NCBI GenBank assembly: GCA_029288365.1
Contig: JARIHI010000007.1
Coordinates: 38,464-102,463, forward strand
Length of the DNA stretch: 64,000 nt
Source: Candidatus Saccharimonadota bacterium
GTDB lineage: Bacteria; Patescibacteriota; Saccharimonadia; Saccharimonadales; UBA4665
Reading direction: 5' to 3'
Shown here: positions 3 through 35,593 of the stretch, in pieces
Numbering within the stretch: position 1 is the stretch's first letter
Layout: each line of letters starts with the position of its first letter
The notes under the pieces: model-generated
Database searches by the model: none
What the model was told of the DNA's origin: nothing
What the model saw: the letters and a program-made list of their open reading frames with translations, nothing else
Position numbers and translations under genes: made by a program

Positions 3-476
3 CGCGTATCAGAGTTAGTCGGACTAGATAAAGACCACATTAACTTAAAACGACGCGAATTTACCGTACGTGGTAAAGGTCAAAAAGATCGACCAATTTT
101 TATAAGTGACGAAGCTGCTCAATGGCTAGAGCAATACCTCAGTAAACGCACCGATAATGTAAAGCCGCTGTTTGTACGATACAGTGGCAAAAAACAAGTC
201 GACTTAAGCGGTAACTATCATCGTTTAACAGCACGAAGCGTGCAACGGCTTGTGGCACGTTATGCGCTGCTCGCTGGCATTACAAAGCACGTTAGCCCAC
301 ATACTCTACGTCACTCTTTTGCTACTGATCTGCTTATGAACGGAGCCGATTTGCGTAGTGTGCAAGCTATGCTAGGCCACAGTAATATATCGACTACACA
401 AATTTATACTCATATAACAGATCCGCACCTAAAAAGCGTTCATGAACGCTTTCATGGTAAACAAGATGCTGAGTAA
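3..476 (+). CDS. Tyrosine recombinase, XerC/XerD family, C-terminal part (5' end lies outside the window)
   Basis: Frame 3 is open from base 3. The translation contains HTLRHSFATDLLMNGADLRSVQAMLGHSNISTTQIYTH, the catalytic R/H-x-x-R/Y signature of phage-integrase-type recombinases. Confidence 0.85.
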   Translation, partial: RVSELVGLDKDHINLKRREFTVRGKGQKDRPIFISDEAAQWLEQYLSKRTDNVKPLFVRYSGKKQVDLSGNYHRLTARSVQRLVARYALLAGITKHVSPHTLRHSFATDLLMNGADLRSVQAMLGHSNISTTQIYTHITDPHLKSVHERFHGKQDAE

Positions 477-482
477 AATTAA

Positions 483-1616
483 TTAGTCGCAACTAGATAA
501 ATCAGAACTGTAGCCCGGAGACATGATATAACGCTTGCAGATTGAATCTGAAGTCTGGAGAGCGTAGTCAGAGAAACTCTTATTGGTAGTACGAGAGCCG
601 CTGCCTACAAGCGGTACGCGTACTTGGATACGACGCAATACGTCTTGGGACTTACCTGTTGCGTCAATCACTGCTTGGGCTCGTGACAAAAAAGCTTCCC
701 CCGAGGCACCGTCTGCGTCAAGTGTTGTATCGCCTATTTTTACCGACACGGTACGAGAGTCTAAGTACACAGTCCGAATACGCAAGTACGCGCTTGAAAA
801 ATTCAAGCCATTTACAGTAAATTTACAGGCTTCTTCATCACATCCAGCGGCTTGTACTAGGCCTTGTGGTGCTCCGGCATTAGGAGTGTAAGCATTTTGG
901 CTGCCGTTGCCATATGTAATGGTGTCTCCTTCGCCGCCTGCCTTAGGATAAATAAAGGCTGTTAATGTATTTTTTCCAGCAACTATGGGATCGCTCAGAT
1001 TTTCAGAAGTGGTAGGAACAATATCCATGCGCAACACGCCAAACGGACACCTACTTGACCAGTTGGATGAAGTCGGGAAATTTGTCCACTGTATGCCCGG
1101 AGCAGTTCGTGGCTTGGGGCAAGTCGCAGGTTTTGTGCTATTTCCGTTACCTGCGGTGCGGTGCCAGGAAATAGTCATCGTATTGATAACCGTTGCAGCA
1201 CCATCTGCTGTCACGGCATTGAGAGGTATAGCAAGTGAGGTATCGGCTACATTTGAGTACAGCAGCTCGTCAGGGACAGGATTTACTGTTAGGCAGGTGT
1301 AGGCTATCTCATTTGCTGCATCCACTTTCCCGTCGTCTTTAGTATATTCACCGCTACAAGTATCTTGTTTTGGCACCGGTTCGGCGCGATTTATCTTTTT
1401 GGTAATTTCTCTCATGGCATCATTGATGCCCGTCTCTGCCGCATAAAATGCTTGGCTACTTAGCTGACGATCCAAAGCTTCTCGATTGTTACGCCGTGAT
1501 ACCTGTGAAAATCCTAAAACTACTAAGCTAATAACCATGATGAATACGATGGTTACCGTAATAGACACCATGCCATCCTGACGCTTACGATGTAGATGAG
1601 GCCGTTTTATAGTCAT
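483..1616 (-). CDS. PilX-like pilus-associated protein (N-terminal membrane anchor, no E+5)
   Basis: The N-terminus (RKRQDGMVSITVTIVFIMVISLVVLGFSQVSRRNNREA...AFYAAETGINDA) resembles the PilX_N domain. It is the last gene of the pseudopilin cluster. Confidence 0.55.
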   Translation of the reverse strand: MTIKRPHLHRKRQDGMVSITVTIVFIMVISLVVLGFSQVSRRNNREALDRQLSSQAFYAAETGINDAMREITKKINRAEPVPKQDTCSGEYTKDDGKVDAANEIAYTCLTVNPVPDELLYSNVADTSLAIPLNAVTADGAATVINTMTISWHRTAGNGNSTKPATCPKPRTAPGIQWTNFPTSSNWSSRCPFGVLRMDIVPTTSENLSDPIVAGKNTLTAFIYPKAGGEGDTITYGNGSQNAYTPNAGAPQGLVQAAGCDEEACKFTVNGLNFSSAYLRIRTVYLDSRTVSVKIGDTTLDADGASGEAFLSRAQAVIDATGKSQDVLRRIQVRVPLVGSGSRTTNKSFSDYALQTSDSICKRYIMSPGYSSDLSSCD

Positions 1617-4290: not shown

Positions 4291-5102
4291 GAATCACTAC
4301 AATCTATTGTGTTCTTTATTGCTAGTGTAACAGAATTCATGCGTTTTAAGCCACCTATAGTAACTAAAGCCGACTGATCAGTACCACCGCTCCGGAAGCA
4401 TACTTGTATGCCATTATCTGGGTTTCTATGGTTATATCCTGCCACTATATTGCTATTGATAACGCTAGCTCCTAAACCGCCCCCCTCTATAGGTACTATT
4501 TGCGTATCTTGCGAGCCATACACCAGGCCATCAACACCACCGCCAAAGTACGGTACAAAAGCTATAGAATTCACGGGATTGCCGTCAAGCCTCGCCCACT
4601 CTTTAGTTAAACCGTATTTTAAGCCCACAGTCTGGGTAGCATTTGTACGAACGATGGGCACGGCATCTTCAAATGATTGAGCCGTATAATCACTTCTTAT
4701 GGAAGAATACTTATTTCCGGCAAGTGAATAAACAAAATATTTCTCAGTATCAAACTGTACAACTTTACCAAGAGAAACACACTTACCATTAGTGCCTTGG
4801 CTTGTGCTAGGTGTAGGATTTGCTGCACACGTAAAACCGCTTGTATCTGGAGAGTACCCACTTTGAACTTCGTTGATTATCTGTTCTATTTCAGTTTGCA
4901 TAGCATTTGCAGCTTGGTTAAACTGGGTTTTACTTTGTCGCCCGGATACAATCCCTACTATTGACACGAACATAACGCCAGTAATGGCCAATACAATAAG
5001 TGTTTCCACCACAGTAAAACCACCCATAGCTTGCGGAATTACCCGTACGTTTTGAGAAGTTTTTTTCTTTCTTAACAGTAGATGATACGTGTCACCTATC
5101 AT
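4287..5102 (-). CDS. Prepilin-type minor pilin (pseudopilin)
   Basis: QAMGG|FTVVETLIVLAITGVMFV with Glu at +5. Start set to Met at 5102 (basic leader), which removes the overlap of the longest ORF with pilD. Confidence 0.7.
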   Translation of the reverse strand: MIGDTYHLLLRKKKTSQNVRVIPQAMGGFTVVETLIVLAITGVMFVSIVGIVSGRQSKTQFNQAANAMQTEIEQIINEVQSGYSPDTSGFTCAANPTPSTSQGTNGKCVSLGKVVQFDTEKYFVYSLAGNKYSSIRSDYTAQSFEDAVPIVRTNATQTVGLKYGLTKEWARLDGNPVNSIAFVPYFGGGVDGLVYGSQDTQIVPIEGGGLGASVINSNIVAGYNHRNPDNGIQVCFRSGGTDQSALVTIGGLKRMNSVTLAIKNTIDCSDS

Positions 5103-13533: not shown

Positions 13534-16344
13534 TTAGAGATCAGACGGTAAAGTAGTGATGAAGTCGTATAAGGTGACTGGTGGGTCGCCTGGACCGCCG
13601 GTTGACTCGCGCTGCCACACAAGAGGATTAAAGCGAAATACTTCGCCTGCGCCACTATAACCAGCCCCACCGGCTGCAGCACTGTTGCTTGGTGCGAAAC
13701 CACCGCTATCCTGATATAAGCTGCCCCAGCTACGCAACAAGTGAATTTTCTTAGCTACAACAGAACCAGTAAAGACTAGCTGGCTCCTACAGGCATTGTA
13801 ATTGCTACCAGTAGCCGTAACCGATAACGGGGCGCCCAGGCCAGAAGCACACGTATATAGGTTGCCTCCTGCACCATCAATTGATTGTGCCACATAAGTG
13901 CCGTATAGCTGTGTTACGCCAGGCCCAATATAGATATTACGCGCCACTACGGTAATACTCGGAATATTTTCTATAGTATTGTTCGGTGCAGTACTTGGGA
14001 TAATATTTTTACTAATATATACATCGCCCTTCACATACAGACGGATACGGCTCCCCTGAGCTACGGTTGGCGTTTCACCAGTGATAGAAGTCATATCATT
14101 TAGGTTGCCGTTAATTACAAAGTTTTGAACAGTGCGCAGATTAGCCTCATTGACGCCTGGCCAGCCACCTGTGTCTAATTCATCACCACTTGGCATCCCG
14201 CCAAAGTAATCAGACATACAGTTGCCAGCTTTTACATTACCACCGAAATTGCCGCCTGCGTCTACACCATCACCTACACTGGTAGCTACGCCATCCGAGT
14301 CGTTGCTGTTAGCAAAGCTCAGATTAGTTGGCCCTGTGGCAAAACCTGGACTGTTTGGCACCGTTTGTCCACTCGCAAAGCCTTTTATCACGTTCTGAGC
14401 GAATACTGCCAAGCTTGCTCCAGCACCGTTAAATGAGCCACCTTCACCGTTCTTATTCCAGGCAATAATAGAAGCGTTAGTCACTGAACAACCCGCCATA
14501 ACATCGCCACCATAAACTTTAAAATATGGCCGCGCAATCACCCGGAAGCAAGACTGACTTGTTGGCTGCCCAGTAAAGAAGTACGGGTTAGTAGTACCAG
14601 CGCTAAATACATTCAAACAATATTGCGTTCCTACGTCTCCGGGTTGAGCCACACGTTGCCAATTAACCGTTTGCGTATCTCCATCACCTCCTACAGCCGT
14701 ACCACAAGAGCCACTTTCTATAGGGCTACCATTCGCTGTTATATTGTAACTACAATTTACCGTATAGCCAGGCCAACCGCCTCCACCTACAAAATTCTGA
14801 GTGTTAACTGTAGATGTTAGTGTGCCCGTTTCAGTTGGCTCAATATATGGCTTAGTGGAGTTAGTTCTTACACTCGAGGTGCCGCCGACTACTACGGTAC
14901 ATGCGTTGGCCGAGTCCGCAGCTACGTGGTTAAATTCTGCTTGCCAACCTACGCTATACCTTTGGCAAAAAATTGCACCACGAGGAGTATAGTTACTGGT
15001 ATACAGCGTAGGATAATCATTATCGGTTACCAGGAATGTGCCAGGCGGAATAACTGCCGGTATGTTCCGTCCGCACCTATCTCCGCTAGCTCCTTCGTTA
15101 GAATTATCAGGATTATAGTTATATACAGCACACCGTGTGAAGCCACTTGCAGTTTTGGTTCCCCACTGATTGCCCGTGTTTGTGATACTATGAGCAAAAT
15201 TAACAGCCCCCCCCTGCTCTACATACGGTGCACTTACTGAAGATGATAACGATAACGACCATGTAGGATCGTCAGGATCGTCAGGACAGTTTGGGTCACC
15301 TGTACCAGGTATACAACTGCTAGGTGATACTATTACACATACGTTATTGCCCGGATTTTGCTGGTTTGGATTGTCGCTGTTAGTACGGTTTGCATATCCC
15401 CTAAAGCAATATTTTGCACCAAAAGGAGCATTATTCGGTATAGTCTTTTGTTCTATTGGGTCGGGCTTTCTGATTGAGTCGTTTACCCCTAAACCAGATT
15501 GATTGACGTGAGAGCCATTAGTATGAGCACCGTTGTAATCTGTATTACGCCAGCGCTCAAAGCTTGGGCTAGGTGCATCTCCAGTATTCGTGATCAGATA
15601 GCTAAATTTGACAGTTTGGCCGCGCTTACGATATATATCTTTCTGAGTCCACTTCCCATTACTATTTTGCACTTGGGACTTAACTTCCAAATTCCATTTG
15701 GTAGGAGCAGGCGGCTCGTTGTAGGCTACCTGAACGATAAGTGTAAAGCCATTATCAGATCGTATATATTTTTTTGTCCAGTCTCCCCCAGAACGCGCAC
15801 CATTTGGTACTCCCTGGCCAGTTATCTCAAAATCTTGCCCATTACCTGCGCCATGAATGCTTTCATCACAATCAAGCGTCCATGGACCAGCTGCGCCATT
15901 ACGCTGAGACGATTTGTTGTACCCAAGTACTGCTGCGCTGTCACGGCCACAGACATTATTTTGTAAGTTAAATGCCCCGCTCATATATCTCGCACCTGTA
16001 TTTGGGTTAAATATATTGCCGCCGGAGCCAGACTGGCCATTGTAATTGCGCACTACTGCTTGAATATTACCTTTAGCTGGTTGCCCGTTAAATTTTAGTT
16101 CTACAATAGCACCAGCATAATCATGAGTATTGCCAGTATGTAAGCCCGCGCCGTCCGCACATTCGCTTAAGCCAAGCCTACGACCTTCTCGAGGCGGAGT
16201 ACTGCTTGAATTCCAAGCAGTACCTGCAGGCAGAGGCCAAGCGCCAGCCTGTTCACCATGCGCAATACCTATAATTGAAAAACCTGTAATAATAGTTATA
16301 AATAGTAATATTTTTTTACTAAATGACAGTGAGCCTATCCTCAT
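13534..16344 (-). CDS. Large secreted protein (936 aa), adhesin-like, function unknown
   Basis: Signal-peptide-like N-terminus (KKILLFITIITGFSIIGIAHG). Several segments resemble CARDB/DUF11 beta-sandwiches (..FSYLITNTGDAPS.., ..FAHSITNTGNQ..). It is Cys-rich and lies directly upstream of pilM. Confidence 0.7.
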   Translation of the reverse strand: MRIGSLSFSKKILLFITIITGFSIIGIAHGEQAGAWPLPAGTAWNSSSTPPREGRRLGLSECADGAGLHTGNTHDYAGAIVELKFNGQPAKGNIQAVVRNYNGQSGSGGNIFNPNTGARYMSGAFNLQNNVCGRDSAAVLGYNKSSQRNGAAGPWTLDCDESIHGAGNGQDFEITGQGVPNGARSGGDWTKKYIRSDNGFTLIVQVAYNEPPAPTKWNLEVKSQVQNSNGKWTQKDIYRKRGQTVKFSYLITNTGDAPSPSFERWRNTDYNGAHTNGSHVNQSGLGVNDSIRKPDPIEQKTIPNNAPFGAKYCFRGYANRTNSDNPNQQNPGNNVCVIVSPSSCIPGTGDPNCPDDPDDPTWSLSLSSSVSAPYVEQGGAVNFAHSITNTGNQWGTKTASGFTRCAVYNYNPDNSNEGASGDRCGRNIPAVIPPGTFLVTDNDYPTLYTSNYTPRGAIFCQRYSVGWQAEFNHVAADSANACTVVVGGTSSVRTNSTKPYIEPTETGTLTSTVNTQNFVGGGGWPGYTVNCSYNITANGSPIESGSCGTAVGGDGDTQTVNWQRVAQPGDVGTQYCLNVFSAGTTNPYFFTGQPTSQSCFRVIARPYFKVYGGDVMAGCSVTNASIIAWNKNGEGGSFNGAGASLAVFAQNVIKGFASGQTVPNSPGFATGPTNLSFANSNDSDGVATSVGDGVDAGGNFGGNVKAGNCMSDYFGGMPSGDELDTGGWPGVNEANLRTVQNFVINGNLNDMTSITGETPTVAQGSRIRLYVKGDVYISKNIIPSTAPNNTIENIPSITVVARNIYIGPGVTQLYGTYVAQSIDGAGGNLYTCASGLGAPLSVTATGSNYNACRSQLVFTGSVVAKKIHLLRSWGSLYQDSGGFAPSNSAAAGGAGYSGAGEVFRFNPLVWQRESTGGPGDPPVTLYDFITTLPSDL

Positions 16345-17339
16345 TTGTCGTATCCTTTGTACTGTGCCTTTATGGCACTAAACGCCTTGTTAAATGCGCT
16401 GGTTTTTGCCGCAGTACCTTTATTATTCAAAACTGTGAAATAGTAATATGTTTCTCGACTTTCCATCTTGGTGGGATTTTTATAGTCCGTTACCTTATAT
16501 GTTTTGCCAACTCGAACTGCACTGATACCTATCGGGGCAGATCCTGTTACATAATCCTCTATATCACTCGGCAACGCAGAATACTCATTTACGTCAGGGC
16601 TTAGCTTTGTGCTCATGGTGTTGTTATTCGGCTTGTACTGATAATTAAGCTTTGGATCAGCCTGGAGCTTTGTAAGCAACTCTGCTGGTTTGGCTGATTT
16701 ACTCTTTAGCTGTTTATGATATGTATCTGCCTGCTCCTGGGCGTACTTACGTTCCTCAGCAATCATGTTTCTATTGCCTGCATTGGCAGGTTGCCAATCC
16801 TGTCCGGTCTCAATAAGGTTTCCAAAGTAAAATACAAAAATATATCCCTTTACATCGTCAAGTGGAGCTGTCTTAGGTAGTTTATTTTCCAATGCTTCGT
16901 CATAAGCTATTAACTCCGCCCACTTGCTGGCTTTTTCTTTATCACCGGCTTTTTTGAAATGCTCGTTTTTAGCCGCCTCAATCTCTGCGCTGGTTGGCTC
17001 AAAATCTACTTTTTTGGCTGCAGCCTGACGCTTCAGATACTCATATGCCTGCGACGCTGCAGCGTCTTTTGATGTACCGGTACTTACCGGATAAGCTATC
17101 AATTCGTCCACGTCTGTTTTTGAGTAATTCTTATTATCTATGATGAATACAGTTTGATCATTTTGATAGTCGCGTATTGCAAGCCATGCGGTGCATACAA
17201 GAAGTACTACTACAGAAATAACGAGAACAACTTTAAGAGCCTTACGCAAACTACCTCCAAAAATAACATCAGACAAAGCTACTTTTTTATTTGAAGTAAC
17301 AGCTGTAGTTTCTGCAGGTTTTTTATCGTTGTCGCTCAT
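16341..17339 (-). CDS. Membrane-anchored extracytoplasmic protein, function unknown
   Basis: 332 aa with one TM helix (VVLVISVVVLLVCTAWLAI). ATGA overlap with the 936-aa gene. It is the first gene of the minus-strand run. Confidence 0.65.
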   Translation of the reverse strand: MSDNDKKPAETTAVTSNKKVALSDVIFGGSLRKALKVVLVISVVVLLVCTAWLAIRDYQNDQTVFIIDNKNYSKTDVDELIAYPVSTGTSKDAAASQAYEYLKRQAAAKKVDFEPTSAEIEAAKNEHFKKAGDKEKASKWAELIAYDEALENKLPKTAPLDDVKGYIFVFYFGNLIETGQDWQPANAGNRNMIAEERKYAQEQADTYHKQLKSKSAKPAELLTKLQADPKLNYQYKPNNNTMSTKLSPDVNEYSALPSDIEDYVTGSAPIGISAVRVGKTYKVTDYKNPTKMESRETYYYFTVLNNKGTAAKTSAFNKAFSAIKAQYKGYDK

Positions 17340-17529
17340 ACAATGTATGTTCCTTATGCTTAACTATAGCATATAAAACGCCGCTACAAGACTGGTGTAT
17401 TTACTTATCCACAACCCTTATGTCTATTGTGATATCAATCACTCAAATAACTAATCATAAGCAATTTTTTTCTTGCTTCATATATGGTATAAGGAAAGTG
17501 GACAGCATAAGTAATAAAGAGGTAGTGTC

Positions 17530-18849
17530 ATGGAAGATCAGCCAAATCCACCCGCCTTGCCAAACGAGATCGAACGAACCGCCATATCGCTGCTTCGTGC
17601 CGCCCAAGAGTCAATAGCTCAAATTGGCACAAAAGCGCTGACCTTGTTTCAGCGTGCTGAAACCGATGACACTCCTGACACAGACTTCCCTGCTGGAGTA
17701 TCTGAATCTCCTAACATATTAGCCATAGAAACTGATCAAGCTGTTCATCTTGATCAGCCCGAGACTGCTTTTAGCAGAATACGTGATGCCGCTGTTGAGC
17801 TTAGAGCTAGAGCACGTACACACAAAAGACACCTCTTAGGTGTAGCAGCTGCTGCAAGCGCTGCGTTTGCAGCACCTTTCGTTTTACCAGAAGTTTTTAA
17901 AAAACCACCTGCTGCAAGCGCTGCGGAAGTAAATCAAGAAACTGGTGGCTATCCTTGGGCAACTGTAAGCCCGGATGAATATGATAGCTATGGTCTACCC
18001 GCAAGGGAATGCTACTCTTACGCGGTCTGGCGAGCGGCGCAAAATGGCACCTCTCCGGAACGAGCTATAGGTGTAGTCTCAGAAGAGGCAGCCTTAGATC
18101 AATATGAAGTAGTCGACAAAATCCCGGCAGTTGGAGCAGTTTTTGCCTCACCCGGTCATGTCATGTACGTTGAGGAAATAAATATTGGTGGTGACCCTGA
18201 TAGGATAAGGGTCTCTGACTATAATGGCAAAGGTGGGCCTTACAGCTACGCTGTGCAGATATTATCTGTATCAAGCCTAATAGATCATGGCTCTTTCGTA
18301 CACCTTGAACTACCTCCTGTAGCCAACGGAGCTTTTGCAGGAGCATCACCAGATAAAGGTAAGAAAAATACTATTGGCTCTAGAGGCATACTTGAATCAT
18401 CCACCTACATTGTATCGCCTAATGGACAGTTCAATCTGCTGCTTGATTATCAAGGCAATGTAGGTATGTACGATAAAGAAGAGGGATTTAGCAAACTATG
18501 GCAGAGTAATACGGCGGGCAGCAATGCGGACGGTCTCAATATTGAGTTAAGCGCTAGAAAAGGAAGAAACAACAGGCTTGTACTCTGGCGCTATGAATCC
18601 GAAGATAGTGCCGCTCATGTCACCGTCAAATCTTGGAGCATAGGCAAAGCAAACAGAGTCGTTATAAACGATGATGGAACAATTTCAGGTTTTAAAGGCA
18701 AGAAAGAACTTTGGAAGGCGCATAGCCTTCCTGCTGCTCCGCGCGCTGCTAAAGCTGCGGCTCGTCGCCAAGCTCGTATTGTCGCAGCCCGAAAAGCAAG
18801 AAAAAGCCAAGCACACGCCAATAAAGCCGCTCGGCAAAGGCGTAAATAA
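17530..18849 (+). CDS. CHAP-domain peptidoglycan amidase/endopeptidase with a bulb-lectin-like domain and a basic tail
   Basis: CHAP Cys (ARECYSYAVWRAAQNG) and His (SPGHVMYVEEI...VSDYNG). A lectin-like stretch follows (NGQFNLLLDYQGNVGMYDK...KLWQSNT). The tail is Arg/Lys/Ala-rich. SD AAGAGG lies 8 nt upstream of the ATG. Confidence 0.8.
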   Translation: MEDQPNPPALPNEIERTAISLLRAAQESIAQIGTKALTLFQRAETDDTPDTDFPAGVSESPNILAIETDQAVHLDQPETAFSRIRDAAVELRARARTHKRHLLGVAAAASAAFAAPFVLPEVFKKPPAASAAEVNQETGGYPWATVSPDEYDSYGLPARECYSYAVWRAAQNGTSPERAIGVVSEEAALDQYEVVDKIPAVGAVFASPGHVMYVEEINIGGDPDRIRVSDYNGKGGPYSYAVQILSVSSLIDHGSFVHLELPPVANGAFAGASPDKGKKNTIGSRGILESSTYIVSPNGQFNLLLDYQGNVGMYDKEEGFSKLWQSNTAGSNADGLNIELSARKGRNNRLVLWRYESEDSAAHVTVKSWSIGKANRVVINDDGTISGFKGKKELWKAHSLPAAPRAAKAAARRQARIVAARKARKSQAHANKAARQRRK

Positions 18850-18850
18850 A

Positions 18851-19231
18851 CTACCTTTTCAGATGATAGGTTATTGTGTGGTGGGTGTAACCATGTCTTT
18901 GAGGGCGCAGCTTCTGTTGGATTTTTAGGCGAATACCCATTAAGCTAAATCGTATTTCTGTTAATAGGCTTTTAAACGTGCCTTTGTATCGAGCTTCTTC
19001 TACCGTTTCATAGGTTATGCTGGCATGGGCTAAAGTATGTTCAAGTGAATACATTTTTTGTTCAATATTCTGTAACGTTTTCAGATCAACATTGGAATGT
19101 CCTGTACCTGTTTTTTGTACAAATTCCGCTCTAAGATCGGTCAGCTCGGTTTTGAGCTTACGATATTCTTTTTCTGTCAGTTCATGCCGTTCTGTAGCAG
19201 CACTAAATGGCTGTAAAGCGCCCATATCCAC
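18851..19231 (-). CDS. Hypothetical coiled-coil protein
   Basis: 126-aa ORF preceded by a strong SD (AAGGAGGTGGAT-ATG). The N-terminal LTEKEYRKLKTELTDLRAE faintly resembles the GreA N-terminal coiled coil. No Gre C-terminal domain is present. Confidence 0.6.
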   Translation of the reverse strand: MDMGALQPFSAATERHELTEKEYRKLKTELTDLRAEFVQKTGTGHSNVDLKTLQNIEQKMYSLEHTLAHASITYETVEEARYKGTFKSLLTEIRFSLMGIRLKIQQKLRPQRHGYTHHTITYHLKR

Positions 19232-19362
19232 CTCCTTTTCTTAGTACCAGGACTTTGTTCAACGCTTTTACCAAATTCCACCTAAGCGAAGCACTACGAC
19301 CCTACTTCTTTAGTATGCGCTTTTATATCTCGGTTTCTGTAAATTATTTGACACTTTTTTGT

Positions 19363-19391
19363 TTGACAAATTTTACTTTTTTTATTATAAT
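19363..19391 (+). promoter_or_regulatory. Consensus sigma-70 promoter (TTGACA-17 nt-TATAAT)
   Basis: TTGACA at 19363-19368, a 17-nt spacer, and TATAAT at 19386-19391. A second TTGACA lies at 19348-19353. The element is about 78 nt upstream of the ATG at 19469. Confidence 0.5.
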
Positions 19392-19468
19392 ATTACCGTT
19401 TCGTGAGGACATATTCTCCGAACACTGTTAGAGTGGAAACTACTGTCGATGATCCGGGAGGGTCAACT

Positions 19469-19921
19469 ATGTGGAAGTCAGACATGCAGGCCGCCGGCGA
19501 GCTGATGCTCGACCTGCTGGGCCACTACTGGTATCTCTACGTGGCGTTCGTGGTGGTCTCGGTGATGTTCGCCTACGCGATGCTGCGCATCTCGTACCGA
19601 TACTCGGGGCCCCGCAACAACTTCATGACCGTTCCGCTGGTGCTGCAAGCGCTCGGTGCAGTCTGCTTCAGCATCGTCATGTCGAACGAGTTCACCAACT
19701 GGTGGCTCGAGCGCTCCTACACGTGCAGCTACGGGCTGCCGATGAGAAGCTGTTCCTACAGCTACTACGCTCCCGAGGTGTGGGAGGTGGCCGCCGCTGG
19801 CGTGAGCTTCCTGTTCCTCTTCCTCATCTGCGCGTTCTTCACGGTGCACCTCAGCAACCCAGTGGCACATCAGCTGAGTCGACGCTTCTCGGTCACCCAG
19901 ACGGAGCGCATCAGCGCCTAG
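19469..19921 (+). CDS. Small three-TM membrane protein of foreign (high-GC) origin
   Basis: SD GGGAGG at 19456-19461, with the ATG 7 nt downstream. 134 of 150 sense codons end in G or C (hand count), which identifies this frame as coding. It has three hydrophobic helices and a Cys-containing loop (TCSYGLPMRSCSYSYY). Confidence 0.7.
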   Translation: MWKSDMQAAGELMLDLLGHYWYLYVAFVVVSVMFAYAMLRISYRYSGPRNNFMTVPLVLQALGAVCFSIVMSNEFTNWWLERSYTCSYGLPMRSCSYSYYAPEVWEVAAAGVSFLFLFLICAFFTVHLSNPVAHQLSRRFSVTQTERISA

Positions 19922-19941
19922 CGCATCACGCACAAGAAGAC

Positions 19942-19996
19942 GGGGGATTGAAGTGTTATCCGAAGAAGCTTCATAGCTTCGCACTTCTCTACCCCC
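19942..19996 (+). terminator. Compound stem-loop downstream of the GC-rich gene (possible terminator, no T-tract)
   Basis: GGGGG (19942-46) pairs with CCCCC (19992-96). GAAGTG (19950-55) pairs with CACTTC (19982-87). The inner stem is GAAGC (19965-69) with GCTTC (19976-80). Confidence 0.3.
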
Positions 19997-20135
19997 TGCC
20001 CTATGTAGTTTCCATTCTTATCCGTTCCATAACTTCCTTGTTATGCTGACGAGCTCTTAGCAGAACGAAAACGGATTACTTATATTTTTTATTTAATTGG
20101 GAATTAATTTGGGTTGTATATAGTTGTGTGCGTAC

Positions 20136-22949
20136 ATGAAACGAAAACTAAAATTACTCACCACAACACCATCAAGGATTATAGCGCTATTAATCGTAAC
20201 GATCTTCTACGCTATTCTTATTTCTGTGGCACCTGGCTCAGCAGAGTCGCCAGTTACTTGGTTGGATAGCTCTAAAAATCCTTCATTGTATAAAAATAAT
20301 TCTATAGACAAAACTAGCTATGATAGCTTACTAGAAAAACGTCGCGGTTTTGTTCATCAAGAATGCATAAAGAAAAAAGTCGCCGTAAGCAGGATGCCCT
20401 TACATTACTATAGGGGCTGTTGGTACGTTACAGATATAGGCTTGTTAGAAAAAGACGGTAAATATCTGCTACAGCCTGGCACAGAAATTGCGGGGCGCAT
20501 CAAAGGAAATAGTCGTGACACGTCGTCTCTGCACCCAAGCCCTAATCCAAAGGTATTTCTAGAATTAATAGACGATGAAGCCACAGGGTATGGTTTTTTT
20601 GTAACGCTCCGCAACTACGACACTACTATTTTTGACCAACAAACGTCTGCCATTACAGGCTCGGTGACACTAACATATCAAAAACCCGGCACAAGACTTC
20701 AGCGTAGTAACAGCTCAATCCATATTGATGAGGCCGATGTGTGGTATTCAGGCAATGCACAATGGATGGTTGTTTGGAATGATAAGGGCACAGTTACTCG
20801 TATTAGTTTATCTACCTTTAAAGCACTACAAGTTACGGTGCGCGAAAAACCAAAATATGGACGACTAACCGGGGCGGCAGATATTACAAATGACGGCCGC
20901 TACATTGCTATTGCTGTCACGAATCCGTCATATGACGAGTTATACCTTGAAGACCTAGCAACATGCGAGGAGGCAGAGGAGTTCGTTATCAAAAATCCAA
21001 TAAATTGCTCGGAGCGGACGCTTAAGCCATACTTAGAAAGTAAGATTAACCCATACGAACTAGTTTCATTGCCGCGGTTTTATGGCAATGATGCGATAAG
21101 TGTATATCACACTAACACCGACGCTACTTACACTCAATACACACTGCAAGCACCAAATACGACCGCACAACTATCTGACTACATTGCTCTTGGTGATTCT
21201 TTTGCCTCAGGTGAAGGTGCGTTTGATTACGAAGACGGCACTGACGTAGACAGTGACGATGGTAATAAGTGTCACCTCTCAAAACTATCTTATCCTTACC
21301 TTATAAACCAGCAGCTGGCGCTGAGTTCTTTCCGTTCAGTAGCTTGTTCGGGAGCGAAGATTGAGAATGTTGTTGGTGGTGAAAATCGAAATAATCAATT
21401 TGAAAGACCTGAATTTATGGCTGGAGAGCTTCATCCTGGCGACCATAGACAGATTTGGCACGTAGATAATTTCTCTCCGAACATAATTACTATCTCCATG
21501 TCTGGCAATGACATCGGCTTTGGCGATAAAGTACGCTACTGCGTCATGGAGCCGGATAGCTGCTTCAATACCTACGAAGATCGTCTGGAAATTATGCAGG
21601 AAATAAACGGCAAGTTCGACAAACTGACCGATATGTATCGCCAACTTAAAGAAGCCTCTACGCCCAATGCAAAAATCTACATTATCGGCTATCCACAAAT
21701 TATTAACCCCGATCTTTTTGCTAAATGCGGCGTGAACGTACACCTTAGTATGGAAGAGCGCGAGTTTGCTTTTGACCTAACCGCATACTTTAACAAAGTC
21801 ATAAAAAGTGCCGCAGACAACGTAGGAGTATCTTATATAGGTATCGAGGGCTCGCTCACTGGCAGCAGGCTATGCGAAACGTCTTCGGCCGCTGTAGCTG
21901 TTAATGGCGTTACGGTCGGTAATGATTCCGGATTTATAGGTATACGATTCTTGGGCCAAGAGAGTTTTCATCCTAATGCAAGCGGCCATGTGTTAATTAA
22001 AAATGCTATTTTAGAGCACACAGATAGCTTTACTAAAGTTACGCCCACTCCCACCCCTACCGCTGTACCGCCTTCCGAAGAAAACCAGATGTTACTAAAA
22101 CTGGTAAAACATAGTGGCAGACCAATCAACAAACTTAATTACGACAATGACCCAAAAAATAATGTCCTGTACCGCGGCAAAGTATGGCAAGCCACTATAG
22201 ACGCGGTGAAATATCAGCTATCACCTTTCTCCTCGTATAAAGTTATCTTAAATTCCGCCCCCACTGACTTAGGCTCCTATGCTACAGATCTAAATGGTAA
22301 TTTAAAGCTTAATATACCTATTCCTGCAGATACCGTAACCGGTATGCATACTTTGCATATTTACGGCCAAAACGAACAAGGCGAACATATAGATATTTAC
22401 CGCTATGTGTATGTAGCAGCTAGCAAAGAAGATGCTGACGGAAATGGAGTCCTGGATGACACGGAACCATGTGCTGGGGTACAAGCTTTAGGCGTTGATA
22501 GCGACGCAGATGGTATAGATGACGCATGTGATGGCGTCATTGGTGAAACACAAACTAACCAACCCAAGGAAGACATACAAAATCCTGAAACCTCTACTTC
22601 TTACCCTCCTTCAGAAGAAGCCCCTCATCAACCACAGGTCACTGGTGGAGTACAAAACTTTTACAAAAACCAACCGTCACAAATTCTGGCATACACATTA
22701 GTCAGCACAGTTTTAAATCAGGGCCAATCGCATGGCATCCCCTTACCTGACTCAACCACACAAAAAACACTAGGTACCGTCATTGAGATACAAAATAAAG
22801 TACCTATAGCACCTATGCAATACAAAAGAAAAGCCATATCGAGTAATCATAAATACTCCGTGGTTTCTCTTGTATCTATCCTGGTTGCATGTACAATGAT
22901 TATGATTTTGAGTTATATGATATATGCTAAAAAGAAGGCTACCGTATGA
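20136..22949 (+). CDS. Cell-surface SGNH/GDSL hydrolase with Ca-binding-type Asp repeats and a C-terminal TM anchor
   Basis: Signal/TM at the N-terminus. SGNH blocks: YIALGDSFASGEGA (block I), SGAKI, SMSGNDIGF (block III), HPNASGH (block V). DADGNGVLDDTEPC...DSDADGIDDACD resembles thrombospondin type-3 repeats. The C-terminal TM is VVSLVSILVACTMIMILSYMIY followed by KKK. Confidence 0.8.
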   Translation: MKRKLKLLTTTPSRIIALLIVTIFYAILISVAPGSAESPVTWLDSSKNPSLYKNNSIDKTSYDSLLEKRRGFVHQECIKKKVAVSRMPLHYYRGCWYVTDIGLLEKDGKYLLQPGTEIAGRIKGNSRDTSSLHPSPNPKVFLELIDDEATGYGFFVTLRNYDTTIFDQQTSAITGSVTLTYQKPGTRLQRSNSSIHIDEADVWYSGNAQWMVVWNDKGTVTRISLSTFKALQVTVREKPKYGRLTGAADITNDGRYIAIAVTNPSYDELYLEDLATCEEAEEFVIKNPINCSERTLKPYLESKINPYELVSLPRFYGNDAISVYHTNTDATYTQYTLQAPNTTAQLSDYIALGDSFASGEGAFDYEDGTDVDSDDGNKCHLSKLSYPYLINQQLALSSFRSVACSGAKIENVVGGENRNNQFERPEFMAGELHPGDHRQIWHVDNFSPNIITISMSGNDIGFGDKVRYCVMEPDSCFNTYEDRLEIMQEINGKFDKLTDMYRQLKEASTPNAKIYIIGYPQIINPDLFAKCGVNVHLSMEEREFAFDLTAYFNKVIKSAADNVGVSYIGIEGSLTGSRLCETSSAAVAVNGVTVGNDSGFIGIRFLGQESFHPNASGHVLIKNAILEHTDSFTKVTPTPTPTAVPPSEENQMLLKLVKHSGRPINKLNYDNDPKNNVLYRGKVWQATIDAVKYQLSPFSSYKVILNSAPTDLGSYATDLNGNLKLNIPIPADTVTGMHTLHIYGQNEQGEHIDIYRYVYVAASKEDADGNGVLDDTEPCAGVQALGVDSDADGIDDACDGVIGETQTNQPKEDIQNPETSTSYPPSEEAPHQPQVTGGVQNFYKNQPSQILAYTLVSTVLNQGQSHGIPLPDSTTQKTLGTVIEIQNKVPIAPMQYKRKAISSNHKYSVVSLVSILVACTMIMILSYMIYAKKKATV

Positions 22950-23539
22950 AAAAAAACAAAAAATCTCTCCTACATCAAAAACGTACTTGGCTTTTAGGAA
23001 GTACGTTGCTTATTGTTGTAGTAACAGTCGGGTTTGCTATTGTCACACACGTACAAGGTACTCGTGAAAACACTCGACGCATAGAGCAGCTGCGACAAAC
23101 TGACAAAGATGTTCAAAAATTTGGAGATTTACTAGAGCAGTCTTTTCCAGGTTTAGTAACACGAAAAAAATACTGCAAACACAATAATGATAAATTTGGC
23201 TATGGTCCATTGTTTTGCACTATCAATCTAACTGTCAAGGCAAAATTTCCATCAGAAAAATCCCTTGTGTCAAATATTAAAAACTTGAATCAAATAATCG
23301 AAAACCAGCGCCTATTTAGTACTAGAGATCTATTTAGTACTAGAGATCAAAACGCTAAGGTCACGACTTTAAGCTCAGCAATAATGACTAATAAGAAAAC
23401 TCGTATGGCTTGTGTTTCGAGCAACGATACCGTGCACTTCAAAGGTTTAAGACCTGAAAAATATGGAGAATTTGAGTTCTACCTAGGCTGCTCAACAGGC
23501 CCACTCAAAAGGCCAATCTATAAACTTACAGACATTTAA
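22946..23539 (+). CDS. Hypothetical membrane-anchored protein
   Basis: 197-aa ORF with an ATGA overlap with the SGNH hydrolase gene. It has one N-terminal TM helix. Confidence 0.6.
   Translation: MKKNKKSLLHQKRTWLLGSTLLIVVVTVGFAIVTHVQGTRENTRRIEQLRQTDKDVQKFGDLLEQSFPGLVTRKKYCKHNNDKFGYGPLFCTINLTVKAKFPSEKSLVSNIKNLNQIIENQRLFSTRDLFSTRDQNAKVTTLSSAIMTNKKTRMACVSSNDTVHFKGLRPEKYGEFEFYLGCSTGPLKRPIYKLTDI
23312..23347. repeat. Perfect 18-bp tandem duplication
   Basis: ctatttagtactagagat occurs twice. It is in frame and gives LFSTRD-LFSTRD. Confidence 0.9.
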
Positions 23540-35134: not shown

Positions 35135-35593
35135 TTAGAATGGGATGTCGTCGAGATTAATAGGCTCATCAGTGATATCTTCAATCACCACATCGTCTTT
35201 TTTCTTCGACGAGTTAGCGTTTGCCGTATCACCTGCAGTATTACTACTGTTGTCATCGCCACCGCGGCCATCGAGGAAGGTCACATCGCTCGCAAGTACC
35301 TCAACTTTACTGCGCTTTTGCCCATCCTGTTCCCAGCTACGACTCTGCAACCGGCCTTGCACCAGACAGCGACGGCCTTTACTGAGGTACTGTGCAACAC
35401 GCTCGCCGAGGGGTCCCCACGCCACGATATCAATGTAATCAGTTGCTTCTTTCCATTCGCCGCTCTGGTCTTTGTACGCGCGGTTCAGTGCTAGGCTGAA
35501 GCTACACACACTTTGGCCGCTTGGCGTGTTCCGAAGCTCTGGATCACGCGTTAGATTCCCCATTAAGATGACTTGGTTGACACTTCGTGCCAT
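35135..35593 (-). CDS. ssb: Single-stranded DNA-binding protein
   Basis: The OB fold begins VNQVILMGNLTRDPELR and the acidic tip ends DDIPF. SD is AAGGAGGG. Confidence 0.9.
   Translation of the reverse strand: MARSVNQVILMGNLTRDPELRNTPSGQSVCSFSLALNRAYKDQSGEWKEATDYIDIVAWGPLGERVAQYLSKGRRCLVQGRLQSRSWEQDGQKRSKVEVLASDVTFLDGRGGDDNSSNTAGDTANANSSKKKDDVVIEDITDEPINLDDIPF

Follow-up and report, generated by a model that had tools for sequence, protein, structure and literature searches.

A putative hammerhead ribozyme and a 5′–3′ clamp helix frame a GC-rich orphan gene in Saccharibacteria

Introduction

A 64,000-nucleotide stretch of the genome of a Candidatus Saccharimonadota bacterium (contig JARIHI010000007.1; hereafter the window, numbered from its first letter) contains a compact unit that encodes a small orphan membrane protein and that appears to end in a type III hammerhead ribozyme. 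A first-pass annotation had drawn attention to part of this unit, namely a GC-rich block bounded by a 10-bp inverted repeat (19434–20014), and had interpreted it as a gene cassette recently imported from a high-GC donor. The hammerhead, which begins one base past the extended repeat, is absent from that annotation. Hammerheads have been documented in bacteria beside small, non-conserved open reading frames (ORFs), where they are proposed to divide long transcripts into mRNAs one gene in length (PMC3088659, PMC6155905), and their biological role is still called an open question (PMC6155905). Here we describe the locus and its relatives in other genomes and metagenomes, and we set out why the whole is probably best explained as a cassette made of a promoter, a clamped cargo gene and a 3′ hammerhead, handed down by vertical descent.

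Results

The cassette is read on the plus strand throughout. Its promoter, at 19363–19391, matches the sigma-70 consensus at 12 of 12 positions (TTGACA-17 nt-TATAAT), and transcription would start near 19398. The leader carries a predicted hairpin at 19400–19422, UUCGUGAGGA...UCUCCGAA, present in both the minimum-energy and the centroid fold of the transcript; its GTTTC.TG motif is kept in two related cassettes described below (L003 and L012). One arm of the inverted repeat follows at 19430–19443 (AGAGTGGAAACTAC, which includes the left repeat at 19434–19443), and then a GGGAGG Shine–Dalgarno sequence at 19456–19461, lying, as the first-pass annotation had it, 7 nt 5′ of the ATG at 19469. The ORF at 19469–19921 encodes the cargo, an orphan membrane protein of 150 residues, and has a GC content at third codon positions (GC3) of 0.89. 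In the 3′ untranslated region (UTR), a hairpin without a U-tract is predicted at 19941–19996 (GGGGG...CCCCC around GAAGUG...CACUUC); an analogous GC-rich hairpin is present in every other cassette that we found, and that of the window is homologous to that of L012. The second arm, GTAGTTTCCATTCT, occupies 20005–20018, includes the right repeat at 20005–20014 and stops one base from stem III of the putative type III hammerhead at 20020–20076, for which we have a full-length Rfam match (RF00008) and covariation. Outside the cassette, on the same strand and 59 nt beyond the ribozyme end, lies a large SGNH/GDSL hydrolase gene (20136–22949; Pfam PF13472, E 4.7e-12), preceded by a promoter-like site of its own (TTGGGA-16 nt-TATAGT, plus strand, 20097–20124) that is conserved in the syntenic locus L012. 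On the other side, the neighboring gene at 17530–18849 contains a CHAP domain (Pfam), and a setting among cell-wall-active genes, as first described, is thus borne out by the domains on both flanks. No terminator-like site was found in 18800–20400.

We recognized the ribozyme through a CUGAUGA...GAAA motif in the homologous locus L003, followed by Rfam scans of short stretches. L003 1454–1511 matches RF00008 (Hammerhead_3) over its full length with 33.3 bits (E 8.9e-5), and the window copy does so with 24.7 bits (E 0.0021 in a 181-nt search); full-length matches were also obtained in L009 (27.4 bits) and L010 (34.2 bits). In the window, stem III pairs 20020–20026 with 20070–20076, stem I pairs 20028–20033 with 20040–20045, and stem II pairs 20053–20056 with 20063–20066. 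The core consists of CUGACGA at 20046–20052, GAA at 20067–20069 and the pair A20070–U20026, and cleavage is predicted after C20027. Neither the 5′UTR nor the 3′UTR matched any other known RNA family.

Further loci were sought with the pattern ATAACTTNNTNGTTATNCTGANGAG, which derives from stem I and the core and is strict in that it fixes stem I. It matched four species-representative genomes and four metagenome contigs; three of the four genome matches are labeled Candidatus Saccharibacteria metagenome-assembled genomes (MAGs), and the fourth, L007 (Thiotrichaceae), lacks the GAAA core and was rejected as a chance match. A scan of the IMG/VR viral contigs with the same pattern gave no match. 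Eight other loci carry the hammerhead subtype of the window, and the cassette is probably characteristic of Saccharibacteria.

These loci share a common order, namely a promoter, a 5′UTR, one small ORF, a GC-rich hairpin without a U-tract, a short arm and the ribozyme. In six loci the promoter consists of two consensus-like hexamers 17 nt apart, and it is less clear in L004. In L003, for example, an AT-rich TTGACA-17-TATAAT promoter precedes an ORF with a GC3 of 0.89, which is followed by the repeat and by CUGAUGA...GAAA. The cargos are unrelated orphans: a three-helix family (window, L003, L011/L012), another membrane protein (L009, L010), and proteins of 78 (L006), 84 (L008) and 119 (L005) residues. 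The genes around them are ordinary and include YmdB, an ABC-2 transporter and YtxH, as well as ORFs resembling peptidyl-tRNA hydrolase, ribosomal proteins and ribonucleotide reductase. Among the neighbors checked there was neither an integrase or transposase nor a phage gene. The next gene is co-directional in L005, L009 and L010 and convergent in L003 and L004.

Comparison of the copies supports the three-helix topology, in which loops cap stems I and II and stem III is left open. In an alignment of nine copies (A1), the canonical three-stem structure pairs 96.7% of cells and slid registers only 29–47%. Compensatory two-sided changes occur at 10 of the 17 ribozyme base pairs, and the covariation score of 0.578 compares with 0.20 in shuffles and was reached by none of 500. 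The catalytic core (CUGANGA, GAA and A15.1-U16.1) is invariant across the nine copies, and the cleavage nucleotide H17 is never G, being A or C among the copies and, at 20027 of the window, C. An AU-rich sequence that hardly varies (UAUAAC-UUCNUN-GUUAUA) makes up stem I and its loop. A covariance model that we built from this alignment (R1) scores the window copy at 76 bits and finds exactly one copy in each locus. Judged by its sequence, 20020–20076 has the hallmarks of a self-cleaving type III hammerhead, and it may cleave in vivo.

The two repeats, TGGAAACTAC (19434–19443) and GTAGTTTCCA (20005–20014), are exact reverse complements, as the first-pass annotation had stated. Among 5000 shuffles, 12 gave a perfect complement of at least 10 bp between the 5′UTR and the 3′UTR. 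Allowing one G-U pair lengthens the helix to 14 bp (19430–19443 with 20005–20018; duplex energy -21 kcal/mol), and for both the window and the L003 transcripts the minimum-energy and centroid folds contain a clamp around the entire cargo. In the eight loci scored, the best partner of the 27 nt 5′ of stem III sits in the 5′UTR. The perfect complement measures 9–12 bp in seven of these eight; in L008 it measures 7 bp, or 13 bp with two G-U pairs. The per-locus shuffle tests give a combined p of ~7e-15. The 3′ arm always ends 7–11 nt before the cleavage site, abutting stem III, and the duplexes range from -12 to -21 kcal/mol. In L009 the 5′ arm begins at about the transcription start. The clamp sequences differ among cargo families. 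Inside the window's own family the helix extensions differ, and the repeat of L003 (GGAATGGAAG with CTTCCATTCC) is unlike that of the window. Because complementarity survives sequence change at a fixed site beside a ribozyme stem, the repeat is more readily understood as an RNA structure than as a recombination footprint. Both possibilities had been raised in the first-pass annotation. The pairing of 5′ and 3′ UTRs is supported by the recurrence of the helix, with differing sequences, in all nine loci, whereas a footprint of insertion is at odds with arms whose sequences differ between loci and yet stay complementary.

The compositional contrast that had first singled out the locus holds up well. 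The GC counts of 13 in 60 (19321–19380) and 38 in 60 (19469–19528) are reproduced exactly, as is the count of 134 sense codons ending in G or C among 150, and a comparison across the window confirms the outlier: 19434–20014 has a GC content of 0.589 against a 64-kb mean of 0.447 (z 4.5) and is the top 560-nt block, and the GC3 of the cargo ORF (z 11.7) compares with 0.392±0.043 across the 51 other long ORFs, whose maximum is 0.536. The ORF with that second-highest value, at 35135–35593 on the minus strand, lies well under the cassette and clearly over the rest. The three overlapping ORFs listed by the first-pass annotation also exist, with codon periodicity and conservation in homologues limited to the 19469 frame.

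Within the cargo ORF, GC at first, second and third codon positions (GC1, GC2 and GC3) is 0.52, 0.42 and 0.89. The first two values match the means of the resident genome (0.537 and 0.400), and third positions alone deviate; C (C3) and G (G3) there reach 0.50 and 0.39, A (A3) and T (T3) are equally rare at 0.05 each, and the codon choice is like that of high-GC genomes. Across loci, cargo GC3 spans 0.51–0.89. The segment enclosed by the clamp has a GC content of 0.53–0.63 in seven of eight loci, as against 0.33–0.48 in the 150 nt on each side, and the non-coding sequence within the clamp is equally GC-rich (0.52–0.71). The enrichment is confined to third codon positions and the clamp interior. 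Two causes were considered and rejected. Selection on RNA structure within the ORF is rejected because synonymous-codon shuffles fold as well as the real ORF, the cargo ORFs being no more structured than such shuffles (z -0.5, -1.2 and 0.0); whole transcripts are modestly more stable than shuffles (z -3.0 and -3.95; 20 shuffles), owing to the UTR elements. Strand-asymmetric editing or mutation is rejected because A3 and T3 are depleted alike. GC richness is a property of the entire clamp-enclosed segment, maintained through long divergence at synonymous and non-coding positions, and it is therefore not the residue of a recent transfer.

Some of the loci hold further GC3-rich orphan ORFs that lack ribozymes (L003, L009 and L010). 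Those of L009 (2490–3239 and 3923–4567) and L010 (7518–8294 and 8939–9589) lie at matching positions on two related large contigs, have a GC3 of 0.76–0.83 and adjoin ORFs resembling peptidyl-tRNA hydrolase and a Der-like GTPase. Each L009 ORF is accompanied by a promoter-like, AT-rich region and by a hairpin that, together with a T run, resembles a terminator, and a search with the protein of L009 3923–4567 (214 residues) returned only itself. In L003, a second GC-rich orphan ORF (345–653, minus strand; 102 residues, GC3 0.70) is divergent from the cassette.

The history of the unit is best read from a related organism, represented by L012 (ENA) and by L011 and L013 (one JGI contig), which is syntenic with the window. 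L012 presents, in order, a homologue of a minus-strand gene of 126 residues, the cassette, the hammerhead, the promoter-like site and the SGNH hydrolase. This hydrolase is 51% identical to that of the window over 491 residues. The cargo evolves fast by comparison, with the L012 cassette protein, P0003, being ~24% identical to that of the window (pairwise E 0.04); it nonetheless aligns collinearly, retains the two cysteines and is picked up by a profile of the family. Its ORF has a GC3 of 0.65 in a context of 46% GC, less extreme than the 0.89 of the window. The promoter-like site and its surroundings are approximately base-for-base the same in L012 (~1003–1030), though the SGNH proteins that follow are 51% identical. 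Promoter, leader, 3′ hairpin, arms and ribozyme align between the window, L012 and L003, and therefore the unit has been inherited as a whole. L003 1–195 encodes a homologue of the C-terminus of a 197-residue protein of the window (22946–23539), so the L003 cassette is placed differently relative to the SGNH cluster. In the window, the SGNH stop overlaps the start of the gene for this 197-residue protein as ATGA (22946–22949), suggesting translational coupling within one operon. We take the unit to be, on the sequence comparisons, a probably old and conserved, self-contained expression cassette that has been vertically inherited.

Homologues of the cargo turned up only in these cassettes. An exhaustive phmmer search of 1.84 billion representative proteins returned a single match, P0001 of L003 (33% identity, E 2e-12), and a profile search of 5.8 billion proteins recovered only P0001 and P0003. 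A word-index search of the same number of proteins with the 150-residue sequence alone gave no match, and DNA and protein searches of phage, plasmid and viral (IMG/VR) collections found no homologue.

These results bear directly on the import first proposed, from a high-GC donor (the actinobacterial host or its phage), with the repeat as the footprint of insertion. Such an event would account for the GC3 of 0.89 against a resident 0.39 (z 11.7), for the sharp change in composition at both repeats and for a codon choice like that of high-GC genomes (C3 0.50, G3 0.39), and it would sit well with the presence of the same cargo family in another context in L003. High-GC genomes are also expected to have higher GC1 and GC2, according to the general relation between codon-position GC and genomic GC, and here these values (0.52 and 0.42) are not raised above the resident 0.54 and 0.40. 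Moreover, an orthologue occupies the same locus in a relative that shares only 51% identity in the neighboring gene, the ORF has been inherited together with its AT-rich promoter, UTRs and ribozyme, unrelated cargos elsewhere are equally enriched inside their clamps, and no homologue outside the cassettes appears in searches that include actinobacterial sequences. The same-locus cassette of L012, the lack of outside homologues and the resident GC1 and GC2 thus leave a recent actinobacterial transfer unsupported, and no host or phage donor emerges from the protein, phage, plasmid and viral searches. Nor is the cassette missing from the locus in the one syntenic relative, where it lies between the same two neighbors. 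The first-pass annotation had itself held that GC-rich orthologues at this locus throughout the clade, together with a lack of actinobacterial homologues, would speak against import; that lack is what we find, and the orthologues amount to one syntenic relative with a lower GC3. We judge a recent import improbable.

An assembly chimera of host and epibiont DNA, also raised at the outset, might explain the sharp composition boundaries and the fact that one contig ends at 20015. That contig, L001 of the Logan assemblies (SRR22279398), is identical to window 14239–20015 and stops three bases before the end of the arm; the next contig found, L002, starts at ~22785, inside the SGNH gene. An assembly-graph branch at 20015 would fit several cassettes or strain variants that share one ribozyme sequence. 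L001, assembled separately, covers the left junction and the entire cassette with 100% identity, two other samples (ENA and JGI) span both orthologous junctions with the same flanking genes, and the architecture recurs in nine loci. The probability of a chimera is accordingly next to nil.

The cargo protein itself offers fewer clues. An AlphaFold model built from three sequences (predicted local distance difference test score 68.7) consists of three long helices plus an N-terminal and a basic C-terminal one, with two conserved cysteines in a loop; the three transmembrane helices and exposed cysteine-containing loop described in the first-pass annotation fit this all-helical model. The protein has no Pfam or PHROG match, and hence none to a holin family. 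Its homologue P0001 scores 17.2 bits against PF23778, for which the cut-off is 32, and a Foldseek comparison with viral structures gave a best E of 2.6. The charge distribution suggests an N-out/C-in topology. Three helices, a small size and a charged C-terminal tail beside wall hydrolases are suggestive of a holin-like role, and the position, fast divergence and predicted topology are compatible with a holin-like, immunity or host-interaction role. Its site between two cell-wall hydrolases makes the cargo a candidate factor in host interaction or immunity for an epibiont.

As for the remainder of the window, ARAGORN detects no tRNA or tmRNA gene in the 64 kb, no rRNA is present, and no Rfam family reaches its gathering score anywhere in it.

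Discussion

The features described above suggest a route by which the cassette may produce a defined mRNA. Transcription from the consensus promoter would yield an RNA that comprises the leader and 150-residue ORF, the hairpin without a U-tract, the 3′ arm and the hammerhead. Because no terminator-like site lies in 18800–20400, transcripts must run into the ribozyme and beyond; RNA polymerase would read past the cassette toward the SGNH gene, and read-through would enter 20136–22949. The ribozyme would cut after C20027 and free a cassette mRNA whose 3′ end, a 2′,3′-cyclic phosphate, lies just past the clamp and the hairpin. The clamp would hold the 5′ end of this mRNA beside its 3′ end, and the mRNA may be shielded from exonucleases because its ends are clamped together past a hairpin. 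Cleavage would at the same time detach whatever is transcribed downstream, that is, the sense SGNH gene here and in L012 and sequence of the convergent genes in L003 and L004. The clamp would probably stack on the short, AU-rich stem III and stop the cargo from disturbing ribozyme folding. The likely function of the ribozyme is then to define the 3′ end of the mRNA and to insulate the transcript, in agreement with what has been proposed for bacterial hammerheads beside small ORFs (PMC3088659, PMC6155905).

A possible, though more doubtful, function overlaps with this one. The ribozyme may serve the SGNH mRNA by giving it a constant 5′-hydroxyl end that carries the ribozyme, in which case the cassette and SGNH products could have independent stability and dosage. 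The SGNH gene follows on the same strand, 59 nt away and with no terminator before it; the arrangement is conserved in L012, co-directional genes follow in L005, L009 and L010, and prophage operons provide a precedent (PMC3088659). The SGNH gene has, however, its own conserved promoter-like site 3′ of the ribozyme, and the clamp and hairpin belong to the upstream product. In L003 and L004, moreover, there is no downstream cistron to serve because the next gene is convergent.

The diversity of cargos before near-identical ribozymes raises the question of whether cargos are exchanged at the DNA level, the promoter and ribozyme forming a fixed landing pad into which GC-rich cargos are swapped. 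Recombination between the flanks, or a structure-specific recombinase comparable to that acting on attC sites, would provide the route, and a GC-rich source pool would provide the cargos. GC enrichment that starts and stops at the arms, non-coding sequence included, would follow naturally from such exchange, as would arm-to-arm spans that are similar in seven of eight loci (536–632 nt), the break of the Logan contig at the boundary of arm and ribozyme (20015) and the further GC3-rich orphan ORFs of L003, L009 and L010. Yet the neighbors checked include no integrase, transposase or phage gene, direct repeats are absent at the junctions, no source pool was found in our searches, and within the family of the window the UTRs, arms and ORF diverge together, as they would by descent. 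We regard cargo exchange as unlikely.

A type III hammerhead in a GC-rich unit of ~650 nt, with a helix directly beside stem III as in a circular form, also calls to mind viroid-like RNAs, and the locus might be the DNA copy of an Obelisk-like, retrozyme-like or other viroid-like RNA, with the clamp as the remnant of an opened rod-shaped circle. With one ribozyme per locus and no tandem copies, there is no second cut to release a circle, and no other ribozyme was found in either UTR. The unit has, furthermore, its own sigma-70 promoter, a conserved chromosomal position and an ORF with strong codon periodicity that encodes a conserved membrane protein. This origin seems to us very improbable.

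One further reading is a long shot, about as improbable as the import considered above, and concerns the composition itself. These loci could be chromosomal RNA modules of some Saccharibacteria, in which the clamped segment is actively kept GC-rich against AT pressure by selection on the RNA. If this were true, the enrichment could serve extreme nuclease resistance, or function in, or transfer to, high-GC actinobacterial hosts with similar codon usage, and ribozyme and clamp would define and protect an exported or long-lived RNA.

Several observations weigh against the proposal of a clamped, ribozyme-ended cassette. All RF00008 scores (24.7–34.2 bits) lie under the gathering threshold of 48.5; a wider Rfam scan (1.8 kb) missed the window copy owing to its filters, and a gathering-level scan of the whole window gave no match. 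Two mismatches interrupt the window copy, U-U atop stem I and C-A in stem II (20054 with 20065). When this ribozyme is folded in isolation, the predicted minimum-energy structure is non-catalytic, at -12.7 against ~-8.6 kcal/mol for the canonical shape, which all five other copies that were folded adopt. It is the weakest of the nine copies and may be slow or decaying. The clamp, too, does not always take the form seen in the window. In L004, a Saccharibacteria MAG, arms at 4312–4373 (GAGTGAAGAG with CTCTTCACTC) enclose a GC hairpin only; this short-range clamp directly follows the stop of a 212-residue ORF of ordinary composition. In L005 (3008–3018) and L006 (4516–4524) the 5′ arm overlaps the Shine–Dalgarno sequence, and there, after synthesis of the 3′ arm, clamp formation might additionally prevent further translation initiation. 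Given these overlaps and the hairpin-only clamp of L004, one common role for all the clamps is not assured. The rationale of mRNA stability, moreover, does not account for a GC3 of 0.89, and the sample is small, with nine copies from eight independent loci.

The locus nonetheless matters in several respects. The hammerhead sits in a simple, repeated and well-delimited setting of one promoter, a small gene, a clamp and a ribozyme, apparently chromosomal, and because of this simplicity the role of a bacterial hammerhead is directly testable here. A sharp GC island does not necessarily denote recent gene transfer, since this one has persisted at its locus through deep divergence. Only synonymous and non-coding positions have stayed GC-rich, and to maintain them would take selection specific to the gene or else a biased process, either of which would be unusual in bacteria.

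Among known systems, the closest are the bacterial hammerheads described by Perreault et al. 2011 (PMC3088659), which share with ours a canonical core and an intergenic location beside small ORFs of unknown function. Unlike those, the present ribozyme is single and lies only 3′ of a gene equipped with a consensus promoter of its own. It is surrounded by chromosomal housekeeping genes, integrase and phage genes being absent from the neighbors checked, and the subtype gave no match in IMG/VR. A long-range helix joins the 5′UTR to the base of stem III, and the enclosed segment is compositionally distinct, in further contrast to the hammerheads of PMC3088659. In our literature search, no paper connected Saccharibacteria, or any other bacteria of the candidate phyla radiation (CPR), with hammerheads, and none described the clamp. 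With Hammerhead_3 of viroids, satellites and retrozymes (RF00008), the cassette ribozyme shares an open stem III, CUGANGA, GAAA and a cleavage site of U followed by a non-G residue, and the matches span positions 1–54 of 54. It differs in its scores (24.7–34.2 against 48.5), in its AU-rich, near-invariant stem I and in the lack of a rolling-circle or tandem context.

Two hammerheads associated with mRNAs invite comparison. Synthetic insulators of the RiboJ type place an engineered type III hammerhead and a hairpin in the 5′UTR and so give transcripts context-independent ends. The insulating role that we propose is alike, and the cassette ribozyme is natural, located at the 3′ end and combined with a 5′–3′ clamp. 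In rodent CLEC2 genes, Martick and colleagues are said to have reported, in 2008, a discontinuous hammerhead in the 3′UTR, split by a long insert. Both it and the cassette element occupy the 3′UTR of a coding mRNA and involve pairing across hundreds of nucleotides, but the cassette ribozyme is continuous, its long-range helix being separate and probably stacked beside stem III.

Finally, the cassettes recall those of integrons, in which small, often orphan ORFs are followed by an attC element that is conserved in structure and variable in sequence, with diverse cargos and a composition unlike that of the host. Unlike integron cassettes, they have no integrase or array, carry their own promoters and a 3′ ribozyme, and have arms ~570 nt apart; hallmarks of mobile elements (a recombinase or transposase, conserved termini or a target-site duplication) are found neither at the locus nor among the neighbors checked. 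The element thus resembles known bacterial hammerheads beside small ORFs, and what appear to be new are the covarying 5′–3′ clamp that abuts stem III and the long-maintained GC enrichment of exactly the segment that this clamp encloses.

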